Virus record (IMG/VR): IMGVR_UViG_3300028591_000081
Location: 32,001-96,000 of that record
Direction: 5' to 3' (one strand)
From: a virus
Lineage: Duplodnaviria > Caudoviricetes
Length of the DNA stretch: 64,000 nt
The first letter of the stretch is position 1. Each line of letters starts with the position of its first letter. Position numbers and translations under genes: made by a program. Under the pieces are notes generated by a model. The model ran no database searches, was not told the DNA's origin, and worked only from the letters and a program-made list of their open reading frames with translations. Shown here one piece after another: positions 993 to 60,631 of this stretch.

Positions 993-1032
993 AGTATAAC
1001 ATGATGTTCAGTTCTTCTCGGAATCAGCACCA
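993..1032 (-). promoter_or_regulatory. phage TGGTGCTG-N23-TGT-TATACT promoter
   Basis: Motif copy overlapping the 3' end of the helicase gene, oriented toward ORF 168..932. Confidence 0.7.
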
Positions 1033-3116
1033 TTAAAGTCCTTCAGGCAGTCCATGTGATCTGCGAACATGGGGGCGTCCTGTGTTCCATACTGCTGTCC
1101 GGCAGTATAAATCTCAAGGCTGTCATTCGCACGTGACACGGCAACATACGTGGCCTGTGAGGCAGACTTGGAATTGAGATTGTAGTTCTTGCTAGGAACA
1201 TACTCCCCTTGACGAGTGTCAATCTTTCCAACATCCCCATACACAACCATCACTTTTTTCCACTCAAGGCCCTGAGCCTTGTTGACGGTCGTGGCATAGT
1301 TCGGGGCAAAGTGTCCAATGAAATCACCCCAAGAGATCCTTGCGGACTTCATCTCAAGAGCGTCTCCCTTGGCCGAAGAACTGATGTCCCTAGGAAGCAT
1401 CTGACTTTTAATCAGCACATCCCCACCATCCATAATCGCGAGACAGGATTCGTTGCGAAGAAATTTCTTCGAGTAAGTAATTTCCAGAGACGGACTCGAA
1501 CCCTCACCAAACTTGAAGTTCTCCAAAGGTCGTACCCTGATGGCCCGCTTGGACATACGGTCACGAATCCATGCTTCGTTATCGCGCCACATTTCAAAGT
1601 AATTCCAATCCCCACGTTTGGGCATATAGAATATCGGAAGCATGTCGTGTTCATCATCCTTGAGAGCAGACTCCATACGAAGCATGTTTATCAGGCCAGC
1701 GCACGCATTACTTCCTGTCACGACCATCTCCCCATCTTCAGGAGTTCTGTGTACATACTCCTGAAGATCTACATCATCTACACGAAACCGAGTAAAGTTA
1801 CGGGATCTGGTACCAGCCACATTCCACACGAAGTCAATCAAGTCATTCGAGCTTGCGCGGTGGTTCTCCGTCAACTTGGTCACTGGATAATTCTGCATAA
1901 GCATGTACAGGAGATTCCCTCGGCCAAGGAAAGAACCTATCTGACTAATGTCTCCCATGCACACAAAACTTGCGTCCTTATCCAGTGCCATCTGAGCAAT
2001 GGAAATGAACGTGTCAAGCTGTTCGAGGCCCCACTGGGAAAGCTCATCAATACAATAAACATTATATGCGGAAACCCATGAATGCATCCTAGCGGTATTC
2101 GCACACAGGTTGTACATCGTAATCGAGCATGGTGTCGTAGGGCAACCTGCAAGATTTGCACGACGCGCCCCATTCAAGGCCACCAGTGTGGACAGAGACA
2201 CCATCAGATTCTTACCACCATTGAAACTCGGAACGAACCAATCCTCAATAGCTCTATGCGTCTTGCCCGTCCCGGCGAGCCCGACGTAAATCCCAAGACG
2301 ATTCTCTTTGTTCAGAGTGTCAAGAATACGACGAAGCATCTTGAGTTTCTCTACGGTTTTAGTCTGAACAAATCCACCTACACCACTCTCACACACGCGG
2401 GTACACTGCTCTTTAACGGCCTTATTAAAGGCTTCACGAAGTTCATCAACATTGAGTTTCACGCCATGAGAAGCATAGTAAGAGATAATGGATGTAGAGG
2501 TATCGCCGCCCACCAGAGCTTGAAACTTAGCCCTAAGTGCATCCGGGGTAGAAGAAGCACGACAACGATCCCATTCCTCATACGCCGCCCCAACCGAACC
2601 GTCGGAACGTTTCACATAACAATTCTTTTTGAGAAGGTTGGGATTGCTGAACACCTCATCCAACAGGTACTCAATCAGCTCATCGCCTTGAAGGGCACAA
2701 AATTCAGTTACTCCTTCGGCGATAAACTTCAGGAAGCTACGCTTGAAAATGGCACGGCGTAAGGTGTTCGGACGTTCTGAAAGGTGCGTGATATCCTCCA
2801 ACGACACGTACTTTCTCGACACTCTTTCCGAATTGAGGATATCCCACCCGAGTAAATCCAGTTTGTCGTCCTTTGCGTCGTATCCAGAGGCAAAGTCAGC
2901 CACCACCTTGTCGATTTCCTTGTCCTGCGACATGGTATTCTTATACTGCAACAGGTCATTCCGAAAATCTCGGATGGTCTTTTTCGGCTTCAAAACCTTC
3001 TTGCTCTTTTTCGCAGATTTCATCGAATCTGCCAAAGTACCTTCACCTTCAGAATCGAAGAGACCAAACCCTTCCTGAAACACACTACCAAGATCTATAT
3101 CGAAATTTCCGCTCAT
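1008..3116 (-). CDS. SF1B (RecD/Dda-like) DNA helicase
   Basis: Walker A GLAGTGKT, Walker B IDELSQ, GDISQIGS, LTENHR, YATTVNKAQGLEW, YVAVSRA. Confidence 0.9.
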   Translation of the reverse strand: MSGNFDIDLGSVFQEGFGLFDSEGEGTLADSMKSAKKSKKVLKPKKTIRDFRNDLLQYKNTMSQDKEIDKVVADFASGYDAKDDKLDLLGWDILNSERVSRKYVSLEDITHLSERPNTLRRAIFKRSFLKFIAEGVTEFCALQGDELIEYLLDEVFSNPNLLKKNCYVKRSDGSVGAAYEEWDRCRASSTPDALRAKFQALVGGDTSTSIISYYASHGVKLNVDELREAFNKAVKEQCTRVCESGVGGFVQTKTVEKLKMLRRILDTLNKENRLGIYVGLAGTGKTHRAIEDWFVPSFNGGKNLMVSLSTLVALNGARRANLAGCPTTPCSITMYNLCANTARMHSWVSAYNVYCIDELSQWGLEQLDTFISIAQMALDKDASFVCMGDISQIGSFLGRGNLLYMLMQNYPVTKLTENHRASSNDLIDFVWNVAGTRSRNFTRFRVDDVDLQEYVHRTPEDGEMVVTGSNACAGLINMLRMESALKDDEHDMLPIFYMPKRGDWNYFEMWRDNEAWIRDRMSKRAIRVRPLENFKFGEGSSPSLEITYSKKFLRNESCLAIMDGGDVLIKSQMLPRDISSSAKGDALEMKSARISWGDFIGHFAPNYATTVNKAQGLEWKKVMVVYGDVGKIDTRQGEYVPSKNYNLNSKSASQATYVAVSRANDSLEIYTAGQQYGTQDAPMFADHMDCLKDFNGADSEKN

Positions 3117-3163
3117 GGTCTACCCTCAACAGTTCGTGAAAAAGTCTCACAAGAGACTCACAG

Positions 3164-3203
3164 AACATACCACAGATTCATCCAAAGACGGGATTCAGCA
3201 CCA
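3164..3203 (-). promoter_or_regulatory. phage TGGTGCTG-N23-TGG-TATGTT promoter
   Basis: Motif copy directly upstream of the helicase, just after a terminator-like hairpin at ~3213-3238. Confidence 0.75.
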
Positions 3204-3241
3204 CAAACCAACAAAAAATCCCGCATCACTGCGGGATACAT

Positions 3242-3646
3242 TCATGCGTCGGAGTCATGGAAATGAAATATCTTCAAAGGTTTCGAGTATGCCTCATATC
3301 CGGCCCATGGCTTGTCCTTGTAATCGTGATTGTAGACACTCGGACCAAACCTTCCCCAATCAGAGACGTTGTAGCATGAAGAGAAGGTAGGCTTCCCGTT
3401 GTACATATCACCATGTGCTCCAGCCCGCTCCATCTCCCACACAACCGTCCGAAACAGCGGTACACCAGTCTTTCGTTCCCTCACCACCAAATCCATACGA
3501 GCGTGGCCATTCTCATCGAACAGCTTTTCCCACACATCAAAGGCTTCATCATAGGACTCACTGGTAAACACCGTCTGTACAGGGGAGGCAAGTTTAAGCT
3601 CAACCACCTCATACGACATGAAATGTGGATTCTCTTCTCTTCCCAT
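3242..3646 (-). CDS. hypothetical protein
   Basis: 134 aa ORF with GAGGTG RBS, packed behind the ligase. Confidence 0.65.
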   Translation of the reverse strand: MGREENPHFMSYEVVELKLASPVQTVFTSESYDEAFDVWEKLFDENGHARMDLVVRERKTGVPLFRTVVWEMERAGAHGDMYNGKPTFSSCYNVSDWGRFGPSVYNHDYKDKPWAGYEAYSKPLKIFHFHDSDA

Positions 3647-3658
3647 TACCCACCTCTA

Positions 3659-4897
3659 TCACAGAACCAGCTTGGCCAATTCTTCTTCGTCTAACACCTC
3701 GCAGTCCGAAATTCCCTTATCTGGACGCCACGCTTCAATCGTACAATGGGTAAGACGCTTGTTCACCCCTGAAATATCCTGACCGGACAGTGTGGCAACA
3801 CGACCATAAAACTCCTGTTTGAGGCAAGGTTTCCCGTTGGCATCATAGTCCGTCATCTCTACACGCAAGTCCTGAGGGATTCCAGCCACGCGCCCAATCT
3901 CTCGTATAATCACCCGACCATCTGCTTGCTTGACCTGACAAGAGAAGATCAAACCTCCGATGTAATTCTCATTGGCCTTACCCTGTGTGGCTTCTGTAAA
4001 CCCGGTAATCCATGCATCCAAATCCTTGGCCAGATCACACTTTACGGTACGTTTGAGTTTGATCATGTCGTCAGAGCGCGATGTCGTAGAAGTGTACGGT
4101 GCGTCGGTACGCTTGGCGACTATGCCCTCCCGTCCCTCACGCAACATCCTCTCATAAAACTCCCGCTTGTTCGTTAAAGTGTACTCGTTGATCATACACA
4201 TGAACCCAGCATCTTTCAATGCTTTCGCGAGCTTCTCAGCATGAACATGACGTTCCTTCCACGGAAGAGAACGAATATCCACCCCGTCATACAGACAATC
4301 GAAGATGACGAACATCAACGGATTATTCTTCTGAATCTCCAAACTCTGAGCAGGATCCAAGGAAAGAAGTGCGGACGTGGAGTTTAGCTGGGACGTACAC
4401 ACCTTCCGTGTAGCAGTGTTTGAGTTTGTAGAGATCACCTCACAATCCAGAACAAAAGAAGTGTCGGAGTGAAAGTTGCCGAAGACACGAACATTGTTCC
4501 GATACGAGATGGGTAAGAAATCATCCACACTGTTATGACGGGAGTAGAAGTCAAACTTTTGAGTATCCGCGTCAAACAGGACTACCGCCCTGTTTCCGTC
4601 GATTTTCTCTTCCACTGCATATTTGCCATCGTTCTTCCAGATCGCTATCTGGGTTGCCTCTTTGCACTGTGCATATCGCTTGCACAGCATCGGACAATCC
4701 ATCGTAAGCATAAACCTAAGCGGAAACGGAACGTTCTCAGGTTCACCGTACTGCTCGACCAAATAATCCGCACGCAAGGCACGAATGAAATCTTCCTTCT
4801 TGAACTTCCCATTCTTGCCGGAAGGGGTAACAGACAAACCTCTTGTCAGACATTCATCCGACAACTGCTCCAAGGTACGCGTCGATTCCAAAGCCAT
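3659..4897 (-). CDS. ATP-dependent DNA ligase
   Basis: Motif I EEKIDGNR, VLDCEV, FVIFDCL, EGIVAK, IKLKR, C-terminal OB-like region ending WRPDK. Confidence 0.92.
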   Translation of the reverse strand: MALESTRTLEQLSDECLTRGLSVTPSGKNGKFKKEDFIRALRADYLVEQYGEPENVPFPLRFMLTMDCPMLCKRYAQCKEATQIAIWKNDGKYAVEEKIDGNRAVVLFDADTQKFDFYSRHNSVDDFLPISYRNNVRVFGNFHSDTSFVLDCEVISTNSNTATRKVCTSQLNSTSALLSLDPAQSLEIQKNNPLMFVIFDCLYDGVDIRSLPWKERHVHAEKLAKALKDAGFMCMINEYTLTNKREFYERMLREGREGIVAKRTDAPYTSTTSRSDDMIKLKRTVKCDLAKDLDAWITGFTEATQGKANENYIGGLIFSCQVKQADGRVIIREIGRVAGIPQDLRVEMTDYDANGKPCLKQEFYGRVATLSGQDISGVNKRLTHCTIEAWRPDKGISDCEVLDEEELAKLVL

Positions 4898-6032: not shown

Positions 6033-6044
6033 ACATTCCCTCCA

Positions 6045-6512: not shown

Positions 6513-6552
6513 AGTATAACACAGCCTTTTGAACGTTCTCGGTTCAGCACCA
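6513..6552 (-). promoter_or_regulatory. phage TGGTGCTG-N23-TGT-TATACT promoter
   Basis: Motif copy upstream of the hypothetical/radical SAM/ligase operon. Confidence 0.75.
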
Positions 6553-7792: not shown

Positions 7793-8539
7793 TTAGAGCG
7801 AAAACTCATCCTGAAGAGCCTTCACATTCACGGCGTCACTACCGATAGAAGGTGCTCTCGGAGTGGCAGGAACGGAACTTCCAGCCGTTTGAGGATTCTT
7901 GAGGAAGTCCTCAAACTTGTTGACATCGAACTTGCTACCGATTGCATCCCACAGATGCGAGATGTTCTCCTTCAGAGTTCGCTGTACATACTCAAAGACT
8001 TCAGGAACCTGCTTGTACAGGCAGTTGCCTACCGGGGACATGCTCTCCAGTCCACCGGCAAATTCCCCGGACGTGGCCACAAGAGACCAGTCTTGAGAAA
8101 TACCGGCAGGGCTTGCAAAGGAATCAGCCATTCGTTTGTTGTACGTGGAGGCATGAATCGACAACACCTTCACCTTGACAGACTGAATCGAGACTTCCTT
8201 CAGAGAAGCACGAACAGGGTCGGCCACCAAGTACTCCACAACAGGGAACAGAACACGGGAAGAGTCCTGAACATCGGGAACCGATTTCAGACGCTTGCAA
8301 CACTCACCGCCATCGCACAGCACGTTGCCAAAGTTTTTAACATAATGCTGTTTGAAGGCAAAGCCACCGTTCATAAGGAACGCCACACGAACCTTACGAG
8401 AGGGGTCCAGTTTCAGACGCTCAATTTTGAACGTCTCCATAACCGCGCCACCCACCACAGGTGCTATGGCAAACCCGGCATCCTTGAGAGCCGCAGTAAA
8501 GTCGATGTTCAAACCTTCCAAAGTCGCTAATTCTGACAT
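7793..8539 (-). CDS. probable gp32-like single-stranded DNA-binding protein
   Basis: VRVAFL...HY...C....CC zinc-site pattern, acidic/hydrophobic tail QDEFSL, own promoter and terminator; start reassigned to MSELA (GAGG RBS). Confidence 0.55.
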   Translation of the reverse strand: MSELATLEGLNIDFTAALKDAGFAIAPVVGGAVMETFKIERLKLDPSRKVRVAFLMNGGFAFKQHYVKNFGNVLCDGGECCKRLKSVPDVQDSSRVLFPVVEYLVADPVRASLKEVSIQSVKVKVLSIHASTYNKRMADSFASPAGISQDWSLVATSGEFAGGLESMSPVGNCLYKQVPEVFEYVQRTLKENISHLWDAIGSKFDVNKFEDFLKNPQTAGSSVPATPRAPSIGSDAVNVKALQDEFSL

Positions 8540-8630: not shown

Positions 8631-8670
8631 ACTATAACACAGAAAATAAAAAATGGGTATCTCAGCACCA
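8631..8670 (-). promoter_or_regulatory. phage TGGTGCTG-N23-TGT-TATAGT promoter
   Basis: Motif copy upstream of the SSB-like gene. Confidence 0.75.
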
Positions 8671-10443: not shown

Positions 10444-10478
10444 GAAAAAGGCCAGTCGAAATGACTGGCCTTTTTCTT
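10442..10478. terminator. bidirectional intrinsic terminator
   Basis: AAGAAAAAGGCCAGTC-GAAAT-GACTGGCCTTTTTCTT between convergent genes. Confidence 0.9.
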
Positions 10479-11794
10479 TATGCTTCCCCGATAGAGTTGC
10501 CTTGCTTCACGAGGCGAATACCTCCGAGACGTTCCACCAAATCCGTGTAGTACACGTTGTTCTTGCTTATGTACGACTTCACAGCATCCTTCCCACGGAA
10601 CTGCACCTCCACACCATCAATACCCTCAAGCGTGTAGAAAGAACCTCTCTGCTTGATCCTGTCATTGTTCTCCAAGGCATCGTACAAAGCCGAGGCGTTG
10701 GATACACCACGTCCAAAAACAATCGTAATAACCTTCGGCACCCCGGAAGCACAGAAACGATTCTTCTTTGTCTTGATGATACACTCACTGCCATACTCGA
10801 TAGGCTCCGCGTAACCCTTGACGGTACGCTTCAGCTTTGACTTGGGCTTCATCTCGATGATGATGTCCATGTAATGCTTTTGGGCCTCACCTCCGGCGGC
10901 ACTGTCCTGCGCACCGTACTGCGTGAACTGCTTTCGGTTCTGCGCGATGAAAAAGATGGTTTTGTCCGTACCGGTAAACAGAGAGCGGAATCGTCGAAGG
11001 AAGTTCGATGTGTACCTAGCATGAATAGCCATTGTCTGGCTCTCGCTGGCAGTCTTGTCGATCATGCTCTGCGGGGACACCGCCGTCAAGGAGTCGATAA
11101 AAATGAAATTCAGAGAAGGGTCGTTCAGCGTCTCCACAAGAAAATCATCCACCTTCTCAAAGGTATCGTAGGTCGTGATCGGTAGAAACATCTTGTTTGT
11201 AACGTAACGAGTCAGACCAAAGCTGTCGATCTGTTTCTGGTTAAGGCCCCGTTCCGAGTCGATGTACGCACAACGGTATCCCTGCTTACACAGATTTTTC
11301 GCAACGAACAGAAGCATGGAGGATTTGCCGGTATAAGCTGGTGCCGTCACCTCAATAAAAGTACCCATAGGGATTCCGTCCCCATTCGACAGAACAGCAT
11401 CAAGAATAAAACTACCTGAAGAGACATACTTTTCCGGACGCAAGGCTTCCTGCATGAGCTTGTCATACAGCTTCTGATTCGCCTGAGGCAGACTCTGGAA
11501 CGCATCCAAAGCTCTTTTATCCTCGTCACTCCAAGGCTGGTTCTCTTCCACCACTACATCCGATCCCGCGTCTTCGTCAGTAGTAATTTTCACTTCAACC
11601 TGATTGTTCTCATCATCTGTCTCGGTCAATGTCTCTTCAACTACCGGCTCTCCGATATCTTCAAGACGTTGAGTATCCTCCGTTACTTTAGCTGGAGTCT
11701 CTTTTGTTTTGGTTTCAGCCGACTTCACGGTGCCACGCTTGGCCGTTGTTTTTGTGGACTTGTTCTCAGAACCTTCGACACGTTTTTTAGGCAT
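10478..11794 (-). CDS. RecA/UvsX-like recombinase with acidic N-terminal extension
   Basis: SSGSFILDAVL, Walker A-like APAYTGKS, YIDSE, IFIDSL, QNR, AGG..KH, KKNRF. Confidence 0.9.
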   Translation of the reverse strand: MPKKRVEGSENKSTKTTAKRGTVKSAETKTKETPAKVTEDTQRLEDIGEPVVEETLTETDDENNQVEVKITTDEDAGSDVVVEENQPWSDEDKRALDAFQSLPQANQKLYDKLMQEALRPEKYVSSGSFILDAVLSNGDGIPMGTFIEVTAPAYTGKSSMLLFVAKNLCKQGYRCAYIDSERGLNQKQIDSFGLTRYVTNKMFLPITTYDTFEKVDDFLVETLNDPSLNFIFIDSLTAVSPQSMIDKTASESQTMAIHARYTSNFLRRFRSLFTGTDKTIFFIAQNRKQFTQYGAQDSAAGGEAQKHYMDIIIEMKPKSKLKRTVKGYAEPIEYGSECIIKTKKNRFCASGVPKVITIVFGRGVSNASALYDALENNDRIKQRGSFYTLEGIDGVEVQFRGKDAVKSYISKNNVYYTDLVERLGGIRLVKQGNSIGEA

Positions 11795-11853: not shown

Positions 11854-11893
11854 ATCATAACACGAAAATACCAGAAGAAACGGATCAGCACCA
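11854..11893 (-). promoter_or_regulatory. phage TGGTGCTG-N23-TGT-TATGAT promoter
   Basis: Motif copy upstream of the recombinase, right after a terminator hairpin at ~11896-11923. Confidence 0.75.
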
Positions 11894-14499: not shown

Positions 14500-15987
14500 T
14501 TACAGAGCGCGGAAATATGCCGTGAGGAAACTCAGGTCAGACGATTCGAAATCCCGAGCATTCAACAGACTCACGATCACCGTGACGAATACGTTGAATC
14601 GTATAGGCATCGACATGTCCTGCCCGTACAGAAGGTCGCCCAACTGAAGAACCCCAACGCAGGGCACATCCACACCCTCAATGTCATCCTCAATATCGTG
14701 ATACCCATCCATGTCTTCAACAGGGAAGAACTCCAAGCCACAAACAGGAAGTGTATTGAGAACAAGCTCAAAACCTTCCTGCAACTGCTCCTGTGTGGCA
14801 ATGTCGGACAGAAACTCCCGTACTCCGTGGCTGGCATAGAACGAGTACACGCCGCGATTCGTAAATACCGTATAATCAAAGATGCCAGAATCCTCCTTCT
14901 CATCACATTCCAGAGGGCGATAAGAACAACCCAACACTATGCCGTCAAAGGTGTAATGAGGCATCTCTGTGATCACATGTTTTTGTTCACGTACAGTGAA
15001 CGTTACATCATGTTTATCTGGGTCTAAGTTCACGTACTGAGGCTTGCTAGATTCTTCGATGAACGGAATGTCTTTCATACCCATGCAGATCAGGTTCGGA
15101 GTCCTGCTTCTGTCGGGCTGGTCTGATCTGTCCGAAAGTAAGTCGCTGACGGTAGGACAGGTACAGTGCATAAACAGCCCAGCAGGGTCCTCGTCAGAAT
15201 CCGGAGAAGGTCGTGAAGCATCATCGTCTGGGGATTCGTCAGGATACTCCTGTACGGGATCTTCGTCATCAAAGGCATTTTCATCGGGATCGTCTTCAAC
15301 ACCGTGTCTATGAAGCATGAGGTAATCTGCATCAGAGTCTCCGGAGCTGTCCGGATCATTCGAGGCGTCCTCACACTTGGACACAACGTCAAATGCTTTC
15401 ATGGAATCCTTGAGAACCGCCTTCGAGAACCCAGCACCTGCACCCCTTGATTCATTCGCTTTGCGAGCATTCTTCCTGAACCACTCATCGGACTCCAAAG
15501 CCTGTCTCTGTTCTTCGGTCATCGAAGCGATCCTAAGAGGCTTGTTGTCAGGTTCAGTCATCTCGGACACACCAGAAGGAACACACACTTCTTCAGGCTC
15601 TGAGGACATGTCTACAACTGGGTCTTCCGACGTATCCGATACCCTTTCCTTACGAGACTTCATAGAGTTCATCCTCGGTTTCTTGCGAGGAGGTTCCACG
15701 TCTTCGACAGTAAGGTACTCTGAAGGGAGCTTTGCCAGCCGAAAAGGTTTTTCCTCAGGAACCTCAGGATGTACTGCTTCGGTACTCGACGGAACCTCAC
15801 ATACGGTGTCGCTTTCCATCACCGCCGTTTCCGTAGACTCGCTTAACTGAATCGGAACATCAGACACAGGGGCATCAGGTGCATCCGAAGATTCAACCAC
15901 CTCCGACACGACCTCTGAAGCTACACTATCCACGACCTCTGATTCAGGAATGACTTCAACTTTTTCCACGCGCTTTTTTCTCGCCAT
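14500..15987 (-). CDS. large acidic, largely disordered hypothetical protein
   Basis: Start at MARKK with GGAGAGGTG RBS, downstream of promoter 16044-16084. Confidence 0.65.
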   Translation of the reverse strand: MARKKRVEKVEVIPESEVVDSVASEVVSEVVESSDAPDAPVSDVPIQLSESTETAVMESDTVCEVPSSTEAVHPEVPEEKPFRLAKLPSEYLTVEDVEPPRKKPRMNSMKSRKERVSDTSEDPVVDMSSEPEEVCVPSGVSEMTEPDNKPLRIASMTEEQRQALESDEWFRKNARKANESRGAGAGFSKAVLKDSMKAFDVVSKCEDASNDPDSSGDSDADYLMLHRHGVEDDPDENAFDDEDPVQEYPDESPDDDASRPSPDSDEDPAGLFMHCTCPTVSDLLSDRSDQPDRSRTPNLICMGMKDIPFIEESSKPQYVNLDPDKHDVTFTVREQKHVITEMPHYTFDGIVLGCSYRPLECDEKEDSGIFDYTVFTNRGVYSFYASHGVREFLSDIATQEQLQEGFELVLNTLPVCGLEFFPVEDMDGYHDIEDDIEGVDVPCVGVLQLGDLLYGQDMSMPIRFNVFVTVIVSLLNARDFESSDLSFLTAYFRAL

Positions 15988-16043: not shown

Positions 16044-16084
16044 ATGATAGCACGCCAAAGGACACACCAAGTCTTTCAGCACCA
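16044..16084 (-). promoter_or_regulatory. phage TGGTGCTG-N24-TGC-TATCAT promoter
   Basis: Motif copy at the start of the leftward gene block. Confidence 0.7.
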
Positions 16085-21810: not shown

Positions 21811-21851
21811 TGGTGCTGAATTCTAAAAAGTACCTAGGGATGTGATATGTT
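21811..21851 (+). promoter_or_regulatory. phage TGGTGCTG-N24-TGA-TATGTT promoter
   Basis: Motif copy upstream of the hypothetical-thyX-nrdD-nrdG run. Confidence 0.7.
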
Positions 21852-24142: not shown

Positions 24143-27100
24143 ATGGCCCCTGAAAGTCGTTCTTTGTCTGTCTTGAAGAAGACCAACACAGTCGTCCCTT
24201 TTGACGGCAACAAAATAAAGTCCGCTATCCGTAAGTCTGCTGAACGCGTCAATGTAACGCTCACGCCACAGCAGGAGGATTTCGTTGTTTCCTATGTGGA
24301 GAACCTGTGCTCTCCTGAAGAACCGGTACTGGTGAAGACGTTGCACAATTATGTGGAGTGTGCTTTGGATTCTGCAAGCCCTGAGGTGGCCAGAAGCTAC
24401 CGGGAGTATCGGAATTACAAGACGCAGTTCGTGAAGATGCTTGATCAGGTGTATCGGAAAAAGCTGGAGCTGAATGATAGTCGTGATACGTCAAATGCGA
24501 ACGCAGATTCCGAGCTTGTTACCACTCAGAAATCCATTGCGTATGCCGAGCTGAATGGAGAGCTTTACAAGAGGTTTTTCCTGACGGATGAGGAGAACAA
24601 AGCACAGGAGGATGGTTACATCTACATCCATGACAAAGGTGCTAGACTCGATACGTCAAACTGTTTTCGTCGAGACACCAGATTTATTACCAACCTCGGT
24701 GTAAAGTCATTTTACGATTTTAATGAAGGTGATACTGTTACAGTCCTTTCCCATAAGGGGGTGTGGCGAAATGCGCGTGTAGTCAAACTTCCGTGGAGTA
24801 AACTTCAACGTGTGTGGCTCAAACGTGGAAATGGAAATGAAACCTATGTGGACTGTACACCCAATCACAGATGGATTCTGAAAGACGGTTCTGTGACAAC
24901 GGAACTGAAAGTCGGAGATGCTTTGTATTATACAGTAGATCGTACTCGGCTGAAGTTCGATGATCTGTCTTTTGAGGATATGAAGCTGTGGTGTCTTGGA
25001 TTTGGGTTTGCAGATGGATCGGTGTCCGGAGGATTGAGTACAGAAGCCGACAAGCTCCGGACTACGATGAGAATTCGTCTTTGTGGCCGTAAAGTTGAGT
25101 TTGCAGACCGATTCTGTAAAGCAGGGTATAAGGTCAAAGAAATCTCAGGTACGAAAGACTTAATGGTTTACCTGAATGAGGTTCACAACAAAAGACTTCC
25201 GTACAATATGGATGAGCACAAGATTGCTGTGTTTATGAATGGTTATATGTGTGCTGATGGATGCCGTCAGTTGTCAAATGGAATCAATTCAATGTTCAGA
25301 GGTGTTCAAGTTACAGGTGAGTTCAACGATTGGATGTATGACTTCCTGAACATTGCCGGGTATTATGTTACACGAACAAAAGTGTTGGATGGTGAAGAAA
25401 CCAATTACGGTGTGAGACGCGATAGAACCATTCTTTATGGAACATTCTCAAGTTCTGGCGACAAGACTTGGAGAGTGACTAGAATCGAAGATACAACCTT
25501 GAATCCGAAAGCCTGTGTGTGGTGTCTTGACGTTGAGGAAGACCACTCGTTTATGCTTGAAAAGGGTATTCCAACAGGCAACTGTATGCTTTGCGATGTT
25601 AAGGAGATTTTCAAAGGCGGTTTTCACATGGGAACCGTACAGTACCGTGAACCTAAGACAATCGGAACGGCGATCACTCTGATGATAGACATTATCCTGA
25701 GTGCCGGGTCTTGTCAGTACGGAGGATTCACGGTCAGTGAGATCGACAAGGTTCTTGCTCCTTACGCTGAAAATTCGTACAACCGCTATTATGAGGAGTG
25801 GGAAGAGATTTCAGGCAAGTCTGATTTTGGAAAGGCGGATGCCTATGCCATGAAGAAACTTCGTAAAGAGATTGAGGATGGGGCGATTGAGTGTGAGATG
25901 CGTCTCAACAGTGCCACCACGGCAAGGGGAGATTTCATCTTCTCTTCCATTTCGTTTGGTCTGTCTGATAATCAGTTTGGGCAGTTGATCACATCCTGCT
26001 TTTTGAAAGTGCGCAGAACAGGGGCTGGTACAGCCGACGGTATCCCAGTCCTGTTCCCAAAGCTCACATTCATGTACGATGAAGCTAAGCATGGTGCGGG
26101 TAAAGGACAAGAGTGGTTATTCCTTGAAGCTGTTGAATGCACACAACGGGCACAGTATCCAGATTTCCTGTCCATGAGCGGCGATGGTTATGCCCCGTCT
26201 ATTTACAAGAAATATGGCGTTACGATCAGCCGCATGGGATGCAGGGCGAATCTCTCCCCATGGTACGAGCGTGGAGGTATGGAACCCGCCGATGAGGAAG
26301 ATCGTCCGGTTTATGAGGGACGGTTTAATATGGGAGCCATAACACTCAACTTCCCAATGATCGTCAAGAAGGCTCAGGATGAGGGAAAGGATTTCTATGA
26401 GGTTCTTACATACTACCTTGATCTTTGCCGTAAGATTCATCTTCGGACGCTGGATTACTTCGCGCATAAAAAAGCTGGGATCAACCCTCTTATCTTCTGC
26501 GAAGGCGGCGGGTACGGTGGGCATTTGAAAGAGACTGATGAGATCGGTCGTGATTTCCTCCGGCCATGTACTGTGTCCTTCGGAATCTCTGCCTTGAATG
26601 AGGCCACGATGATGTATAAAGGTAAGTCCCTGTATGAAGATAAGGCGCAGTTTGCAGAAGAAGTCTTGAAATTCGTCAATGACTATGCGAACCGTTACAA
26701 GAAAGAGGACGGGGTTCTTTACGCTGTGTACGGTACTCCGGCAGAAAGCCTGTCGTCTTTACAGGTGACGCAGTTCCGTAAGAAGTACGGCATTATCAAG
26801 GGAGTCTCGGATCGCAAGTACATGTCCAATTCGTTCCATGTCCATGTCTCAGAAGATATCACGCCGATGGAGAAGATGGATGTCGAGTACAAGTGTTTTC
26901 ATCTGTGCAACGGCGGGAACATCATATACAACCGATTTGGAACAGATTACAATACGAAAGCCTATGTCACCTTGATTCGTGAAGCGATGAAGCGCGGGTA
27001 TTACTACGGGTGCAATATCAGCAAGAATTACTGTTGCACCTGCGGTGCCGAGTTCCTAGATAATGACAAGTGTCCGAAATGCGGTAGTTCAGATCTGGTA

Positions 27101-28161: not shown

Positions 28162-28201
28162 TGGTGCTGTTCTGAATTCTGTATTTGTTTTGTGTTATCG
28201 T
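28162..28201 (+). promoter_or_regulatory. phage TGGTGCTG-N23-TGT-TATCGT promoter
   Basis: Motif copy right after nrdG, followed by a leader hairpin GGGAGCAC/GTGCTCCC. Confidence 0.7.
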
Positions 28202-28273: not shown

Positions 28274-28555
28274 ATGAGGGATGTTCGGATAACACGTTTT
28301 GAACACAGAAACCAAATCAGCGGCGTGTTCCAGTTTAAGGGTCACTGGTATTTGGCCGACCTTATCGAACTTCAATACGGACTGGATCTTTATGACTCAC
28401 CTTACGAATTCATGGTTTTTAAGGCTGATGAACAAGGAGAGGTCACTGACTGGTCAGGGGAATTCGTACTCAGACCTGACGGTGTTTCCGAGGAAGTCCT
28501 GATGGAATGTATTGAAGATTTCTGTCAGCATTATGAAGGGAGAAGTGATGAATAA
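28274..28555 (+). CDS. hypothetical protein
   Basis: AGGAG RBS before MRDVR. Confidence 0.65.
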   Translation: MRDVRITRFEHRNQISGVFQFKGHWYLADLIELQYGLDLYDSPYEFMVFKADEQGEVTDWSGEFVLRPDGVSEEVLMECIEDFCQHYEGRSDE

Positions 28556-30309: not shown

Positions 30310-30349
30310 TGGTGCTGACGGCGTGACTGGGGTTTTCTCGTGGTATAAG
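30310..30349 (+). promoter_or_regulatory. phage TGGTGCTG-N23-TGG-TATAAG promoter
   Basis: Motif copy after the FNT gene. Confidence 0.75.
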
Positions 30350-44504: not shown

Positions 44505-44544
44505 TGGTGCTGAATGAATTTTCCCGAGATTTCCATGTTATAGG
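44505..44544 (+). promoter_or_regulatory. phage TGGTGCTG-N23-TGT-TATAGG promoter
   Basis: Motif copy immediately after the HU terminator. Confidence 0.7.
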
Positions 44545-44597: not shown

Positions 44598-44801
44598 ATG
44601 ATCACTCGATACATCATTCAGCATCAGACGGTGGATCGCAAACGTTGGGTGGATGAGCAGACCTTCACCAATGCCCTTGATACCTACATCGTAATTGCCA
44701 AGTGGGGCGTGCTCTGGCCGTGCTACAAACATCGGGTTATTGAGCGTTGCATCCTTGGGGATGGCACCTACACTGAAACTGTACTGTCCATCCATAAGTA
44801 G
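44598..44801 (+). CDS. small hypothetical protein
   Basis: GGGGAG RBS. Confidence 0.55.
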   Translation: MITRYIIQHQTVDRKRWVDEQTFTNALDTYIVIAKWGVLWPCYKHRVIERCILGDGTYTETVLSIHK

Positions 44802-49661: not shown

Positions 49662-49701
49662 TGGTGCTGTTTGCTTAGAACGATACTTTTTGGGGTATTA
49701 T
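49662..49701 (+). promoter_or_regulatory. phage TGGTGCTG-N23-GGG-TATTAT promoter
   Basis: Motif copy upstream of the HNH gene. Confidence 0.65.
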
Positions 49702-54010: not shown

Positions 54011-54050
54011 TGGTGCTGACAACACATCTTTGAAATCTCTGTGGTATGAT
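54011..54050 (+). promoter_or_regulatory. phage TGGTGCTG-N23-TGG-TATGAT promoter
   Basis: Motif copy upstream of the DNA polymerase. Confidence 0.78.
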
Positions 54051-54097
54051 GAAACGTCTCGAAATGTCTTCGAGACGTTTTTTCGTATGAGGTGTGT

Positions 54098-57000
54098 ATG
54101 TCCATTGACTCGTCAAGCAAAGCCGCTCTCCATAAGGGTTACAAACACTGGTGTCCTGAAGTAGAACCAAGAGAGGACTGGGATAAGGATTTCAACTTTG
54201 TTCTGATTCGCAGTATTGAGGAATTGAAGAAACTGGATGTGGAACATAAATTCGTGGCATGGGATACGGAAACTTCTGGCCTGAATCCTGACATCGACTG
54301 GCTGGTTGGGTTCTCCTTCTCTTTCGACGGATTGACTGGATACTATGTCCCTGTGAAACACGACGACATCGCCCTCGGGAAAGAGGCTCTGGACATCTTT
54401 TACTCAATCCTTAGTAAAGCCGGAACACAGTTCCTATACAACTGCCGTTTTGATCAAAGATTCTTCGAGGCCGCTGGATATTCGTTGGAAGGGTTGCGTT
54501 ATTATGACGTGATGAACGCAATATGGCTGGCCGATACCAACGTGCTTATGCCTAGCTTGAAAGCCTCTGAGCGGCGATTTTTGGGATGGATTCCAAAGAC
54601 TTTTTCAGAGACTTTAGGAGAGGCTACAACGTTTCAGCATGTTCCGGCTGAGGATGCTTATAAATATGCTTGTACAGACGCGTTGGGCACGTATCATCTC
54701 GCCTTGATTTCAAACCAGTTTTACAAGGAGAGTTATCCGGCCAGCAAGTATGACAATGACGCTCTGTACCCAATGATGCGCTTGGAGAACACTCCGCAAC
54801 GTTTGGATTTGGAGTATCTGAAATCTCTTTGCTCTTCAGTAGAGACCCGTATTGAGGAGAGTCTCCAACAGGTGTATCAGTTGGCCGGGTGTACATTCAA
54901 CGTCAATTCTCCGGCACAGTTCGGTAAAATCATGTTGGAACGCTTCGGAGTCGATACTGGAGTCCGTACACCTACTGGGGCCATGAAAGCTGATTTGAAG
55001 ACCCTTGAAGCATGGCTGGTAAAGCACGGCTCCAAGGTGAGTCCTGAGGTAAAAGACTTCCTGTCTGCATACAAGGAATACAAAAAGACCGTCAAATTCA
55101 AGTCCAGCTATTTGGACAAGTATATCAAGGCCGCAGAAGATTCTGAGACATTCCCAATCCGTTTCAGCTACAAGTTCCAGTCGGTTCCGTGTCTTACGGA
55201 AAACAACACAGTTCTCACGAAATCTCGCGGATTTGTGTCGATTAAAGATGTGCAGTCTGAGGACATGATTTGGACATCGTGGGGATATAAGCGAGTGCTG
55301 TGGAACCATTCCCATGAAGTTGACGAGTTCTATCGAGTTACCCTGAAGAACGGGATGACCTTGGAAGGCACTGGGCACCATCCTGTACTTGTTCGCAAAT
55401 CACCACTTGAAAAAGTGGCATACTCTGGAATGACCAAGGATGATGTCGAGTGGGCAGGTATTCAGGATCTGAAACCTGACGAACCCGTTGTGATCAATCA
55501 CGTTCATGCTTCCCTCTCTTGCTCAGATCCTTGGAAATCTTCACTGGCCCGTATCATGGGGTACTTTTATGGTAAAGGAAAAATGACCGATGGGGTGTTG
55601 ATGTCCCTGTGCTTCGACAATCCGGACTTGGCCTCTCATTATGCTGGATGGATGAAATCTTTGTTTGGAGACAAGAAAGTTTCTCAATATGACGTAGACA
55701 AAGGGAAGGTTGAGTACTCCATCACAAGACAAACTTTGGCAAAGTTCCTTGCAGAACATGAGGTGATTCCTACGGTCGAGGAAGATCGTCTTGGGAATCT
55801 GAAGGTGAAGCCTGTGTCTACATATACAAAGGTGGCGGACAGACTTTCACGAATGCCTGACACCTTCCGTCATTTCCTTGCTGGGTATCTGGATTCTGCA
55901 AAGACTTCTGCCCGGGAACTTGGGTATAAAGAGATTCCTGAGGACTGGGACGATGGTATTACAACAGATCGGGTGGTTTTCGTCATTCCATCTGCATGTA
56001 AGGATGTCATTATCCCGATGTTTTGGGCCAGTGCTATTGGCTGTAAAGTGACAGATCATACCTTCAAGACTTGGTTTGGGGAAGGTAAAGTGACAAGAGT
56101 GGAGGTGTCTGACCCTTGCTCACTGTCGAATCTTTTGAGTTTGTGGAATAACCTAGATGTAGGGTTGGCTCGTTTCTCTTGTGTGGAACTTCCAAACACA
56201 TTCCGTTTGTACACTGAATCTATGGTGCAGTCGGTGGAGCGCGTATCTGCCAAGAACACGGTGTATGATATCGAGGTTGAAGACGTGCATGAGTATGTCG
56301 CCGGTGGTATCGTTACACACAACACGGGCCGCCTTAGTTGCGGTGGTGACAAGAAGAATTCCTTTTTCACGCAGAATAACGTACAATGCCTTGAAGAGGA
56401 TACGTCGGTTATCACATCAGAAGGAATAAAGCCTATAAAGCAGGTAAATACTGGTGATTTGGTTTGGACAGGCTCTGAATTTGCCCCATGCCAACAGCTA
56501 GGTTCAAAGACATGCAGTGTGTTGAAAATTTCCACTGATTGCGGGGAGGTGGTGTGTTCAGCAGAACATTTAGTCCTTGCGTCCGACTCTCGTCACGGGA
56601 CTGGAGAATTTCGCCATGCTGGAGAATTGAAGGTGGGACAGTTTATGAAGCGTGCGGGGTTTGAGGGAGAAAGACGAAAAAGTAACGTTCGAAATAAGTC
56701 TGAGTTTCGTTTGGATGACGATGGGTACTCACCCTCAAGGATTGAGCGCATCGAAAGGGTTGGAGAGGCAGTCTGTTACGATCTATTCGTTCCAAAGTTT
56801 GAGAGATTTGTAGCCAACGGATTCATTGTCCATAACAGCACGCCAAAGCCGCACAGCTTGATGGTGAAGGGGCGTAAAGCCACACAGGAAGAAATCGACC
56901 AAGGCAAGGACCTTCTTGGATGGTACCTCTCAAACGATATACCGGACGACGAGGCGGTAGGGTTGGTGGAAGGTATGGATCCTGACCATTTCAATTTGCG

Positions 57001-58894
57001 CAGAGCCTTCCTGCCGAAAGATGATGACTGCTATGTGGTGTCCATAGACATGAAGGCCGAAGAACTGAGACTTGTAGCCAACATTTACAACGAGAAGACT
57101 TGGGCCGATGCGTTCATTCACGGTAAGGATGTTCATAAAGCGTGCTATTCCCCCGACACGGAGTTCCTTGTTCTCAAACATGGATGGATGACGGCGGATC
57201 GTATCACGGCAAACATGGAGATAGCTTATTACGATCCAATGGATGATGAGGTGAAGTTTTCTAAGGCCGGGAAACGGTATTCACACGAAGCATCCGAAGT
57301 CTACACGCATCCAACTCTCTTTAATGTCACCGACAATCATCGCATGTGGATTGGTACCCCAGATGTAGGATTCCGTATTGTGCGAGCCTCCGAACTTAAA
57401 TCCCAAGGAAATCCGAAGCAGAAGTTCAGAATGAAGACTGCGGTCGGCCAGCGAACGTCTTTTCGATTCATAGAAGCCTCGTGGGGACGGAAGATGGGAC
57501 AGTATTTCTGCTATGGCTTCATGTACTTTGCCCCACATTATTCTGATGAGGACGGCTTTGTTCACATCACGCTGGATTCTCCATGCCCGAAATGTCCATA
57601 CGACTTTTCCATATTCCTGCATTCAGGGGACTTTTCTTCGACGGAGTTCTCTGTCGATAAAGAACTGTCCTTGGGCTTCAAGTCCTTTGAAGCATCACAC
57701 CCTTGCACAGACCTCTTTTCTTTAGCAAAGACCGAGTACAAGGATGAGCCTATATTCCTTCAGGATTTCGTGTACGGTATGCTCATGTACCTTTCGTCCA
57801 CAAAGTTTAATACACTCAATCTTGGAGACGGTTCAAAAGTGTCCGGCAAAGTTGTAGTGTCGTCAAAGGAACATGCTGACGCGATTCAGTGGTTACTGAT
57901 GCTTACGGGTTCCACCTGTCGGGTGGCTCCATCCAAGAGTTCCTTGTACGGGGAAGGGGCTTATGTTCTTACGATATTCTCTGATGTGTCGTCCTTACCC
58001 AAGTCTCTTGGTTCCACGTTTGGTTCTGTCAAGCAGAAGAACATTGCCGAAAAGCATTTGACCTATTCCTGTTTCAGCGTGCCAAGCGGTCTTCTTGTTA
58101 CAAGGTACAAGGGACAGATCACGGTGAACGGAAATACGGCCATCAAGCTGTTTGGAGAAGAGAACTACTCGAAAGAAGCTCGAAAGAAGGCAAAGGTCGC
58201 CAGCTTTGGAATTTTGTACGGAAGTGGTGCGCAGGGATTCAACTCATCATTCCCAGAAATGTCTCTGGATGAGTGCCGACAGTTTCTTGCCAAGTTCAAG
58301 GAGGCTCTTCCGTCCATTGAACAGGGACAGGCTGAAAATGTGTCCTATGCCCGGGAACACGGAACCATCAACACTGGATTTGGTAGACAGCGTAGAGTTC
58401 GAAGCTACTTCCAGTCTGGAGATAGGGCACAGATAGCCTTTGCTGAAAGAACGGTAAAAAATTCCGTTGTACAAGGTACTGCCGCTGATGTTTTGAAACT
58501 CATATTTTGTCGCCTGTGGGCCAATGTTTTCAAACCTTACCCAGACGTGACTTTCATGTCCACCATTCACGATGAAGTGAACTTTTCCATGCCGAAGCGA
58601 CTTGCACGTGAAGTGATTCCTATCTGCATGGAGTGCATGACTATCCGAAGGGATGATTGGCCTGTTACGTTGGAATGTTCCCTATCTATTGGCCGAGACT
58701 CTTTAGGTGACTTGATACCGTTTACTTACAACAAGGAAACAAAGGAATTCATACCAGAATGGGAAGAGTCAAGCGAAGTCTTGAAGAAGCGCGTGGGGCA
58801 TGTGGAAACCAAGCCTGCGGATAACGAGTCTTTGGACGTTGAAGAGTTTGATGACCCTTACTTTGGATTACCTCCCGAGGCTTGTGAGTTCTGA
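54098..58894 (+). CDS. family A DNA polymerase with 3'-5' exonuclease and three inteins
   Basis: ExoI DTETSG, ExoII N..FD, ExoIII YA..D, TGRLS, motif A DMKAEELR, motif B RKKAKVASFGILYG, motif C IHDE. Confidence 0.95.
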   Translation: MSIDSSSKAALHKGYKHWCPEVEPREDWDKDFNFVLIRSIEELKKLDVEHKFVAWDTETSGLNPDIDWLVGFSFSFDGLTGYYVPVKHDDIALGKEALDIFYSILSKAGTQFLYNCRFDQRFFEAAGYSLEGLRYYDVMNAIWLADTNVLMPSLKASERRFLGWIPKTFSETLGEATTFQHVPAEDAYKYACTDALGTYHLALISNQFYKESYPASKYDNDALYPMMRLENTPQRLDLEYLKSLCSSVETRIEESLQQVYQLAGCTFNVNSPAQFGKIMLERFGVDTGVRTPTGAMKADLKTLEAWLVKHGSKVSPEVKDFLSAYKEYKKTVKFKSSYLDKYIKAAEDSETFPIRFSYKFQSVPCLTENNTVLTKSRGFVSIKDVQSEDMIWTSWGYKRVLWNHSHEVDEFYRVTLKNGMTLEGTGHHPVLVRKSPLEKVAYSGMTKDDVEWAGIQDLKPDEPVVINHVHASLSCSDPWKSSLARIMGYFYGKGKMTDGVLMSLCFDNPDLASHYAGWMKSLFGDKKVSQYDVDKGKVEYSITRQTLAKFLAEHEVIPTVEEDRLGNLKVKPVSTYTKVADRLSRMPDTFRHFLAGYLDSAKTSARELGYKEIPEDWDDGITTDRVVFVIPSACKDVIIPMFWASAIGCKVTDHTFKTWFGEGKVTRVEVSDPCSLSNLLSLWNNLDVGLARFSCVELPNTFRLYTESMVQSVERVSAKNTVYDIEVEDVHEYVAGGIVTHNTGRLSCGGDKKNSFFTQNNVQCLEEDTSVITSEGIKPIKQVNTGDLVWTGSEFAPCQQLGSKTCSVLKISTDCGEVVCSAEHLVLASDSRHGTGEFRHAGELKVGQFMKRAGFEGERRKSNVRNKSEFRLDDDGYSPSRIERIERVGEAVCYDLFVPKFERFVANGFIVHNSTPKPHSLMVKGRKATQEEIDQGKDLLGWYLSNDIPDDEAVGLVEGMDPDHFNLRRAFLPKDDDCYVVSIDMKAEELRLVANIYNEKTWADAFIHGKDVHKACYSPDTEFLVLKHGWMTADRITANMEIAYYDPMDDEVKFSKAGKRYSHEASEVYTHPTLFNVTDNHRMWIGTPDVGFRIVRASELKSQGNPKQKFRMKTAVGQRTSFRFIEASWGRKMGQYFCYGFMYFAPHYSDEDGFVHITLDSPCPKCPYDFSIFLHSGDFSSTEFSVDKELSLGFKSFEASHPCTDLFSLAKTEYKDEPIFLQDFVYGMLMYLSSTKFNTLNLGDGSKVSGKVVVSSKEHADAIQWLLMLTGSTCRVAPSKSSLYGEGAYVLTIFSDVSSLPKSLGSTFGSVKQKNIAEKHLTYSCFSVPSGLLVTRYKGQITVNGNTAIKLFGEENYSKEARKKAKVASFGILYGSGAQGFNSSFPEMSLDECRQFLAKFKEALPSIEQGQAENVSYAREHGTINTGFGRQRRVRSYFQSGDRAQIAFAERTVKNSVVQGTAADVLKLIFCRLWANVFKPYPDVTFMSTIHDEVNFSMPKRLAREVIPICMECMTIRRDDWPVTLECSLSIGRDSLGDLIPFTYNKETKEFIPEWEESSEVLKKRVGHVETKPADNESLDVEEFDDPYFGLPPEACEF
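55190..56323 (+). mobile_element. intein 1 in DNA polymerase (378 aa, degenerate LAGLIDADG)
   Basis: P|CLTENN...GTGHHP...VYDIEV...THN|TGRLS. Confidence 0.92.
56387..56836 (+). mobile_element. mini-intein 2 in DNA polymerase (150 aa)
   Basis: Q|CLEEDT...CSAEH...CYDLFV...FVANGFIVHN|S. Confidence 0.92.
57143..58135 (+). mobile_element. intein 3 in DNA polymerase (331 aa)
   Basis: DVHKA|CYSPDTE...VTDNHRM...CFSVPSG...VNGN|TA. Confidence 0.88.
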
Positions 58895-60037: not shown

Positions 60038-60048
60038 AGGAGACTGCT

Positions 60049-60540
60049 ATGATCAAGGATATGCGTAAACAACCTCGCTTTAGAACTATTAACAACGAAG
60101 GACGACAGACGGGACGTAATTCTCGTATCCGTTCTCGCCGTCTCGAAAAGTTTACTGGTCAAGACCGTGCTCTTGCCAAACAGCTTGACGACATTTGCAG
60201 TTCTGTTTCTGGACGTGAGATTGAGAATACTGTCCAGCTCCGTACCATTCTCTCAAAAATTGAACGCGGTGCAGAGGCTTTAGGTTGCCGTTTCAAACTC
60301 GCTCTTATGGACGGATTCAATGGTAGTCCTCATTACGATGAGTACACGGTGGATGAGTTCTGTGTGAAAGCTAAACGCTACCTTCCTGCTGATGATGACA
60401 CCTTCGTGGAGGTCATGTTCGTAGACGGTGAACCCGGCGACCAGTACATGCTGGTCTGGACGGACGATGATCACGAAGAGATCACGGAGTTTGCGCAGTT
60501 CATTTTTGATGCGCCCTCTGACGGTCGTATTGGCCTGTAA
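60049..60540 (+). CDS. hypothetical protein with Arg-rich leader
   Basis: AAGGAG RBS. Confidence 0.65.
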   Translation: MIKDMRKQPRFRTINNEGRQTGRNSRIRSRRLEKFTGQDRALAKQLDDICSSVSGREIENTVQLRTILSKIERGAEALGCRFKLALMDGFNGSPHYDEYTVDEFCVKAKRYLPADDDTFVEVMFVDGEPGDQYMLVWTDDDHEEITEFAQFIFDAPSDGRIGL

Positions 60541-60557
60541 TCCGCATCCCTTGATGC

Positions 60558-60589
60558 AAAAGAGCCAGCAAATCGCTGGCTCTTTTTTT
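60558..60589 (+). terminator. intrinsic terminator
   Basis: AAAAGAGCCAGC / GCTGGCTCTTTT followed by T-run. Confidence 0.85.
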
Positions 60590-60590
60590 A

Positions 60591-60631
60591 TGGTGCTAGG
60601 CCCAACCCCTATCACAGCCTTGTGGTATAAT
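60591..60631 (+). promoter_or_regulatory. phage TGGTGCTA-N24-TGG-TATAAT promoter
   Basis: One-mismatch motif copy with a perfect extended -10, right after the terminator. Confidence 0.72.

Follow-up and report, generated by a model that had tools for sequence, protein, structure and literature searches.

The promoters Pm, Plys, PI, PP and Pmom of phage Mu carry a -10 element without a -35 element and use the host sigma70 RNA polymerase (RNAP); for the late promoters, the presence of a -10 and the absence of a -35 element are described in PMC2582627. The Mor site of Pm is a 16-bp element with its centre at -43.5, which is occupied by a dimer of the protein (PMC4390567). The contacts that Mor and C make with RNAP involve the C-terminal domain of the alpha subunit, region 4 of sigma70 and the beta flap (10.1101/2025.05.02.651988). 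In the middle promoters of phage T4 a phage-specific box replaces the -35 element in front of a sigma70-type -10 element, and dozens of these promoters precede replication and nucleotide genes. Here, a class of promoters with a related architecture (class A) is described in a stretch of 64,000 nucleotides (nt), referred to as the window, that corresponds to bases 32001–96000 of the IMG/VR record IMGVR_UViG_3300028591_000081. The complete record (genome G0; 227,618 bp, 47.5% GC, estimated completeness 96%) represents an uncultured jumbo phage of the ruminant gut with a T4-type portal. Class A promoters consist of a box, the 8-mer TGGTGCTG, followed by an extended -10 element at a distance of 23 or 24 nt, counted from the 8-mer to the TGn. 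The sites very probably form a real promoter class, and the sequence evidence supports a class that is non-late, phage-specific, of the extended -10 type and devoid of a -35 element. It would represent a clear variant of a known phage strategy, the upstream activator box.

The window contains 12 exact copies of the 8-mer where 1.8 would be expected, and 0 out of 100 shuffled sequences reached 12; the composite pattern box-N23/24-TGnTAnnnT matches nine times against 0.00 expected. A thirteenth site (60591) contains the box variant TGGTGCTA. All 13 copies listed in a first-pass annotation of the window were found at exactly the positions and on the strands given there, and the spacing that it reported is equally exact (24 nt at 16077, 21811 and 60591, 23 nt at the other ten sites). 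The four sites that escape the composite pattern deviate at the last base of the hexamer (30310 and 44505), in the box (60591) or in the TGn (49662). Each copy faces the following open reading frame (ORF), as had been claimed (13/13). Genes were predicted with a crude in-house ORF caller, and the region at 49.1–49.8 kb of the window and a few start codons are mis-called. The spacer had been described as unconserved and free of a -35 element, and it contains at most 0.45 bit per position between -37 and -18, which leaves no room for a -35 element (the hexamer is numbered -12 to -7, assuming a transcription start approximately 7 nt after the hexamer).

Two further descriptions hold in part. The statement that the sites often follow a terminator applies to about a quarter of them (10 out of 37 genome-wide have a hairpin and a T-run directly upstream). 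The downstream genes were described as replication, recombination and nucleotide genes, and a Dda-like helicase, a ligase, a RecA-like protein, NrdD, an intein-containing PolA and an SNF2 helicase are indeed among them, but the regulon is wider. Most of the first genes downstream of the window sites have no Pfam or PHROG match and one encodes an HNH endonuclease; genome-wide, many members precede small ORFs without assigned function, some precede proteins with capsid-targeting-like tags, and class A promoters are also found inside structural blocks.

The complete genome contains 37 exact copies of the 8-mer which, together with the single TGGTGCTA site, give 38 promoters. Every exact copy (37/37) has a -10-like element after 23 nt (28 sites) or 24 nt (9 sites) and lies within or bordering an intergenic gap, and all sites face a gene, with ORF starts 20–310 nt downstream. 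An equal frequency of the motif in intragenic and antisense positions had been named as an observation that would speak against a promoter class; genome-wide, all 37 copies are in promoter configuration and none is ectopic, compared with about six ectopic copies expected from composition, which suggests selection against stray sites. The other three copies of TGGTGCTA are intragenic, lack a -10 element and are chance occurrences.

The consensus of the class reads ttTG-TGGTGCTGA, an unconserved N22/23 and TGTGnTATaaT. Its upstream part is a conserved asymmetric block from about -50 to -38, within which the 8-mer occupies -46 to -39 with eight invariant positions (approximately 2 bits each), preceded by T-rich and G-rich positions (tt-T-G) and followed directly by an A in 34 out of 37 sites. 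No convincing dyad is present in the consensus tttgTGGTGCTGAa, and no second conserved half-site was found within 25 nt on either side. The downstream element (T-17, G-16, T-15, G-14, G/T, T-12, A-11, T-10, A-9) is a TRTG-type extended -10 element: the TG at -15/-14 is present in 37 out of 38 sites (the exception is window site 49662), T-17 in 25 out of 37, G-16 in 29 out of 37 and TAT in 28 out of 37, and the TA at -12/-11 is invariant.

Neither of the other two primary-sigma-like architectures is enriched in the genome. TTGACA-N16-18-TATAAT-like sites (23 copies, mostly genic) are at chance level without intergenic enrichment, including the TTGACA-N17-TATAAT form, and 38 out of 323 box-less TGnTAnnnT matches are intergenic where the intergenic fraction of the genome is 10.3%. 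This leaves class A as the only class of the primary-sigma type. Among the words enriched in intergenic regions of G0, TATCNAA ranks second, with 38 out of 91 copies located there (42% compared with 11% expected). Among the intergenic copies with a downstream gene, 36 out of 37 are co-directional with it, 37–137 nt before the start codon, and the flanking sequences are unconserved. TATCNAA sites stand in front of the large structural blocks and of the block with the portal gene, which makes them a single-element class of the T4 late type, distinct from class A and probably read by a phage-encoded gp55-like protein. In two divergent gaps of the window (9105/9148 and 40813/40835) copies of TATCCAA are arranged face to face within short inverted repeats (GGTTGGATAT / ATATCCAACC) and could act as late promoters in pairs or as an operator. 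Outside the window, two divergent box promoters are located back to back with overlapping boxes (genome positions 182168, minus strand, and 182180, plus strand), and the -10 element of the minus-strand promoter (TGGTATCAAA) includes the late-type word TATCAAA.

The first-pass annotation had likened the logic of class A to that of the MotA/AsiA-dependent promoters of T4, while noting that sequence and position differ. An upstream phage box that replaces the -35 element is common to both, and G0 has T4-like head genes. The position does not agree, however: the MotA box, (a/t)(a/t)(a/t)TGCTTtA, has its centre at -30, and the class A box is located one helical turn further upstream (centre at about -42), with 25–26 nt between box and hexamer, and differs in sequence. 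The two boxes share TGCT. A six-frame search of G0 returned no match to MotA (PF09158) or AsiA (PF09010) at E ≤ 10, although very divergent analogues are possible. By analogy, the Mor/C promoters of Mu are a better fit than those of T4 MotA. Like class A they have a -10 without a -35 element, and the Pm site (PMC4390567) and the class A 8-mer both lie just upstream of the -35 position. Mor/C proteins combine a DNA-contacting beta-strand linker with a helix-turn-helix (HTH), and a putative member of this family is encoded by G0. The differences are substantial: class A has 38 members in a 228-kb phage where Mu has one plus four promoters, its box is a strictly conserved asymmetric 9–13-mer where the Mu sites are imperfect dyads of 16–26 bp, and its -10 element is of the extended TRTG type, unlike that of the Mu promoters. 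Extended -10 promoters in general (TGn, or TRTG in Gram-positive bacteria) share the TG, T-17/G-16 and the lack of a -35 element with class A but have no conserved box at -42. The Thermus phage P23-45 shifts host RNAP to extended -10 promoters during middle and late transcription. The T4 late promoters (TATAAATA), which depend on gp55, gp33 and the sliding clamp, resemble G0 in the single-element TATCNAA class and in a gp55-like domain 2; in contrast, the box promoters are bipartite with a primary-sigma-type -10 element, and the partner protein in G0 is Mor/C-like and not gp33-like.

Relatives of G0 were retrieved with the portal protein and form two clades, one close and the other distant and AT-rich; alignment-based searches added the genomes G044 and G045. 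A search with the Mor-like protein alone retrieved no relatives, and a metagenome scan added only genomes similar to G6, whose records were searched in part. The close clade comprises G6 (138 kb, 43% GC, 78% portal identity) and G10. G6 contains 18 sites (cgTGGTGCTGT-N22-TGGTAt) with the same 23/24-nt spacing as G0. Among the 14 box-driven genes of G0 that have an orthologue in G6, seven are box-driven there as well, including the RecA-like gene and PolA, and at the shared promoters the box and the TGnTA are conserved whereas the spacers are unrelated. The distant clade (G7, G8 and G9, 48–49% portal identity) differs: G7 (32% GC) lacks the box and contains repeats of the form TTTTCTATTTACA-N14-TGnTATAAT, and no fixed upstream motif was found in G8 and G9 (32–35% GC). 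G044 (252 kb, 36% GC) also lacks the box and contains approximately 27 copies of TCCCCT-N11-TACAAAAAT. The architecture aTCCCCTnAnnCCAATTTTACAAAAAT-N5-ACCAACTTT-AAGGAG, present approximately 27 times about 50–60 nt before start codons, takes the place of the box class in this genome. The TATCNAA class is conserved in G6 (TATCAAA, 17 out of 18 intergenic), G7 (taTATCAAAT) and G044 (TATCTAA, enriched). The late-type motif is therefore kept throughout the group, whereas each lineage (G0/G6, G7 and G044) has an upstream element of its own in the other class.

G045 (IMGVR_UViG_3300031992_000332) is an integrase-bearing contig of 30.8 kb, 39% complete, that shares only four proteins with G0. It nevertheless contains three box promoters (8993, 9104 and 10800, plus strand) and encodes a 351-aa (amino acid) protein with a Mor-like domain; a gp55-like gene was not found, which is weak evidence given the completeness of the contig. 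G045 could represent a satellite or another phage that infects the host of G0 and uses the same promoter code. An array of approximately 78-bp repeats containing AGGTGCTTG is located at 4.4–7.4 kb on its minus strand. Beyond these genomes, a megablast search of GenBank phages with 8.4 kb of the window gave no match, the closest cultured portals (Bacillus phage SP-15 and Listeria phage LIS04) are about 30% identical, and a literature search for the 8-mer returned primer matches only. A loose box-promoter pattern (15 specified bases) gave, among the IMG/VR matches listed, only chance singletons, with five long contigs carrying one chance copy each.

No Sigma70_r2, Sigma70_r4 or RNAP beta subunit was detected in a six-frame Pfam search of G0, and because no phage RNAP was detected the use of host RNAP is a reasonable assumption. 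Two adjacent genes outside the window encode potential transcription proteins. The first product is a 117-aa protein (genome 8432–8785, minus strand) that matches Pfam Mor with E = 0.0016 and 18.9 bits over profile positions 5–99 of 107; its relatives score up to 24.1 bits against Pfam Mor and match phrog_836, annotated as late transcriptional activator. The AlphaFold2 model of the protein has a pLDDT (predicted local distance difference test) of 92, and Mu C and Mu Mor occupy the first four places in the Foldseek search (9l0x, 1rr7 and 9l0y among them). The second is a 248-aa protein (genome 8813–9559, minus strand) without a direct Pfam match, in which residues 85–175 of the model form a sigma domain 2: the best VIA-align match is T4 gp55 (7d7c chain F; Z 9.7, root-mean-square deviation 2.1 Å over 85 residues); more than 40 sigma factors come next with Z values of 7–9.4, and remote homologues pass the Sigma70_r2 cut-off. 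Both genes belong to an operon (clamp loader, gp55-like sigma, Mor-like) located behind the box promoter at genome position 10794.

In G7, G8 and G9 the sigma-domain-2 and Mor-like parts form a single ORF of 292–310 aa, and in G0, G6 and G044 they are separate genes (with a TnpB insertion between them in G6). The Mor-like protein of G0 thus corresponds to the detached C-terminal half of the fusion found in relatives, and its membership of the Mor family is weakly supported by sequence. Within a library of 1.8 billion proteins most relatives of the pair are single-domain and few are fused. The N-terminal, gp55-like piece of the G0 clade carries a long acidic extension, and stand-alone Mor-like members have a basic HTH half where the fused forms of the AT-rich clade are neutral. 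No match was found when the sigma/Mor family profile was compared with PDB sequences or the fused protein with GenBank phages.

The best overall explanation, with a probability of about 0.5, is that a Mor/C-type activator bound to the box cooperates with a host-sigma extended -10 element, and that the gp55-like protein serves TATCNAA. Host primary-sigma RNAP would read the extended -10 element, which alone would provide basal activity, and a phage activator with sequence specificity for the box, bound next to sigma region 4 on its upstream side, would recruit or stabilise the RNAP. This first part, host sigma together with a box-bound activator, is somewhat favoured; the assignment of the activator role to the Mor/C-like 117-aa protein, the best candidate, is tentative. 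Class A would drive replication, recombination, nucleotide and many accessory genes, and the TATCNAA class, through the gp55-like protein, the structural genes. As the operon of the candidate activator is itself headed by a box promoter, the class could start at a basal level upon infection and then amplify itself. The first-pass annotation had proposed an early or middle regulon with an activator near -43 acting on host sigma70 RNAP. A non-late class, a box centre at -42/-43 and the lack of a detectable phage RNAP agree with this proposal; the term middle is unproven, as no activator-independent early class was found, and the class may be early and self-amplifying. The activator, which the annotation could not identify, now has a predicted candidate.

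The geometry of the promoters, by analogy with Mu, favours an activator beside sigma region 4, and the linker of the Mor-like protein varies with the box. The sequence QGDKIEFP is identical in the box-positive G0, G6 and G045 although the proteins are only 32–54% identical overall, whereas the box-negative genomes have QGDNIHVP (G044, 38% identical to G0) or QEDKFNIP (G7–G9). The corresponding anti-parallel beta-strands of Mu C insert into the major groove of the DNA, and their mutation nearly abolishes activity (10.1101/2025.05.02.651988). The basic HTH half of the stand-alone Mor-like members also connects the protein with the box. Several observations weigh against this explanation. The Pfam Mor score of 18.9 bits is below the cut-off of 24.9 and the Foldseek E-values are weak (0.2–0.75). 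The box covers only about 13 bp without dyad symmetry, whereas Mor/C proteins bind their sites as dimers or tetramers, and the HTH recognition helices differ among G0, G6 and G045. The -7T is weakly to moderately conserved (23 out of 37 sites in G0, 7 out of 18 in G6), an unusual property in a -10 element read by a primary sigma. The Mor-like and gp55-like parts are one fused polypeptide in three relatives, and the pair is kept together with TATCNAA in box-less lineages, which suggests a primary and possibly sole late role similar to that of T4 gp55/gp33. Finally, the number of independent lineages behind the linker covariation is small, and a G6-like phage may have been the source of both the gene and the promoters of G045.

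In the best surviving alternative, the Mor-like/gp55-like pair serves late TATCNAA promoters only and the box is read by a different factor (a phage adaptor of the MotA-like type, a protein delivered with the virion or a host factor). This would account for the lineage-specific upstream elements (TACAAAAAT type in G044, TTTTCTATTTACA type in G7) next to a conserved pair, and most genes of G0 are without assigned function and could include such a reader. Nevertheless it is rather unlikely, as neither MotA nor AsiA was found in G0 and no HTH is present among the ten small proteins common to G0 and G6 but absent from G7. A host-resident reader would fit the box promoters on ruminant-gut contigs of metagenome-assembled genomes (MAGs), one of them beside a bacterial housekeeping gene, but the candidate-host MAGs and 30 relatives show the pattern on essentially no contigs other than phage-like ones with Arg-rich-tag ORFs, and the number of matches in species genomes is close to chance (see below). 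A reader encoded by the phage and dedicated to the box agrees better with the depletion of ectopic sites and with the linker covariation.

A split phage sigma factor is less probable still. The 248-aa gp55-like domain 2 would read TGTGnTAT and the Mor-like protein would act as a region-4 surrogate on TGGTGCTGA, together with host core RNAP. The adjacency of the genes in G0 and their fusion in G7, G8 and G9 agree with this proposal, as do the sigma domain-2 fold of the 248-aa model with gp55 as its best match, the remote members that pass Sigma70_r2, and the bipartite structure of class A, which is expected if two modules contact the DNA; the unusual distance of 26 nt could further be a consequence of a region-4 surrogate that is not tethered, and the weak -7T is atypical of a primary sigma. 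However, the -10 element is a textbook TGn/TRTG element of primary sigmas, and a domain 2 of the gp55 or ECF (extracytoplasmic function) type would not be expected to recognise it in the absence of region 3. G044 has the split pair without the box, G045 has box promoters in the absence of a detected gp55-like gene, and TATCNAA co-varies with the conserved sigma in all lineages, a better fit to gp55-type recognition. The location of the sigma genes behind a box promoter would also pose a bootstrap problem, which only injection of the protein would solve. If this alternative were true, TGGTGCTGA would be contacted by a detached module, one helical turn further upstream than the place of a tethered region 4, and Mor/C would stand in for sigma region 4 both in evolution and in function, joining the Mu (Mor/C and clamp) and T4 (gp55/gp33 and clamp) systems. 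Mu C was recently shown to use the sliding clamp (PMC12867686).

It is very improbable that the sites are a repeated protein-binding or mobile-cassette sequence (a module boundary, nucleoid or partition site, or terminator-associated repeat) instead of promoters, since despite the cassette-like context of some copies, with a shared upstream hairpin (tcatgcgcctttt...) in G0, G045 and MAG contigs, and the 10 out of 37 sites that abut terminators, all 38 sites are oriented toward the downstream gene at promoter-like distances from the start codon, the TGTGnTA is conserved at a fixed spacing where flanks and spacer are not, and sites are kept before orthologous genes. A sigma54 site and a Chi site were also considered and dropped, as the sequences are unlike those consensuses.

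If the Mor/C-type explanation holds, one short box and one small protein would control approximately 38 transcription units of an uncultured jumbo phage, providing an orthogonal and compact pair of activator and promoter, and sequence alone would suffice to read the temporal programme of a ruminant-gut phage clade. The absence of ectopic copies is a measure of how strongly the box site is policed. The sigma-domain-2/Mor-like protein, fused in some relatives and split in others, offers a testable bridge between sigma factors, T4 gp55/gp33 and Mu Mor/C, and this may matter more than the promoter class itself.

A strict box-promoter scan of 185,579 species genomes resulted in 23 matches, about the number expected by chance. 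Two of the 23 are in the ruminant-gut MAGs RGIG464 and RGIG4413, both labelled Proteobacteria bacterium. RGIG464 contains six sites compared with one in the control, and the relatives G027 and G022 also carry sites. The ORFs downstream of the MAG boxes encode Arg-rich, Glu-ended N-terminal tags of the phage type (MxIRKR...E). On a 43-kb MAG contig, a YjeF-type housekeeping gene is located approximately 2.5 kb from two box promoters, beside ISAs1 and TnpB genes, and an ISAs1 transposase gene lies directly behind a box promoter. These findings point to this bacterial group as a possible host or as a possible carrier of related integrated elements. A role of the box as a general host promoter element is unlikely given the chance-level result of the species scan and the location of the MAG sites on phage-like stretches.

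Table 1. Coordinates of class A promoters, TATCNAA sites and related features (positions refer to the window unless another sequence is named).
Feature	Position	Strand	Details
Class A promoter	993..1032	-	Box 1025-1032, 23-nt spacer, TGT TATACT; faces 254-aa ORF 168-932
Class A promoter	3164..3203	-	Directly after terminator-like hairpin; faces Dda-like helicase 1008-3116
Class A promoter	6513..6552	-	Operon of 135-aa ORF, radical-SAM-like gene and DNA ligase 3659-4897; box promoter kept at G6 orthologue
Class A promoter	8631..8670	-	Faces 248-aa ORF 7793-8539; box promoter kept at G6 orthologue
Class A promoter	11854..11893	-	After terminator; faces RecA/UvsX-like gene 10478-11794; box promoter kept at G6 orthologue, spacer unrelated
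Class A promoter	16044..16084	-	24-nt spacing; faces 495-aa ORF 14500-15987
Class A promoter	21811..21851	+	24-nt spacing; heads plus-strand block with NrdD 24143-27205
Class A promoter	28162..28201	+	T, not A, after box; faces 93-aa ORF 28274-28555
Class A promoter	30310..30349	+	Hexamer TATAAG; faces 164-aa ORF 30424-30918 with Arg-rich, Glu-ended N-terminal tag MRKREYFES
Class A promoter	44505..44544	+	After terminator; hexamer TATAGG; faces 67-aa ORF 44598-44801
Class A promoter	49662..49701	+	Without TG (GGG TATTAT); faces HNH-endonuclease ORF ending at 50756
Class A promoter	54011..54050	+	Faces intein-containing family A DNA polymerase 54092-58894; box promoter kept at G6 orthologue
Class A promoter	60591..60631	+	Box TGGTGCTA, 24-nt spacing, TGG TATAAT, after terminator; faces DnaJ-domain gene 60706-61431 and SNF2 helicase 61452-63116
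TATCNAA	9148, 36884, 40813, 43144, 44058, 58900	+	
TATCNAA	9105, 21051, 36869, 40835, 51660	-	
Fused sigma-domain-2/Mor-like ORF	L135:1915-2847	-	
Fused sigma-domain-2/Mor-like ORF	L151:14594-15493	+	
Fused sigma-domain-2/Mor-like ORF	L158:4325-5203	-	
Split sigma-domain-2 and Mor-like genes, G044	L192:3120-3599 and 3611-3982	+	
G044 repeat examples	112108, 112420, 202441, 226160		Shown antisense

Additional features were identified in the relatives and in the window. A tandem array of at least nine 12-nt units (AAAATTCTAATC) is located at 84515–84600 of G7, close to the fused sigma gene in a large region devoid of genes. In G044, the clamp-loader gene (L192:448–2430, plus strand) appears to be interrupted by an intein, with 660 aa compared with 354 aa in G0. 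The family A DNA polymerase ORF of the window (plus strand) encodes 1600 aa with intein splicing domains. A formate/nitrite transporter-like protein, an unusual auxiliary gene, is encoded at window positions 29696–30304 on the plus strand (Pfam Form_Nir_trans, E = 8.9e-17) and has a counterpart with 59% identity in G6.

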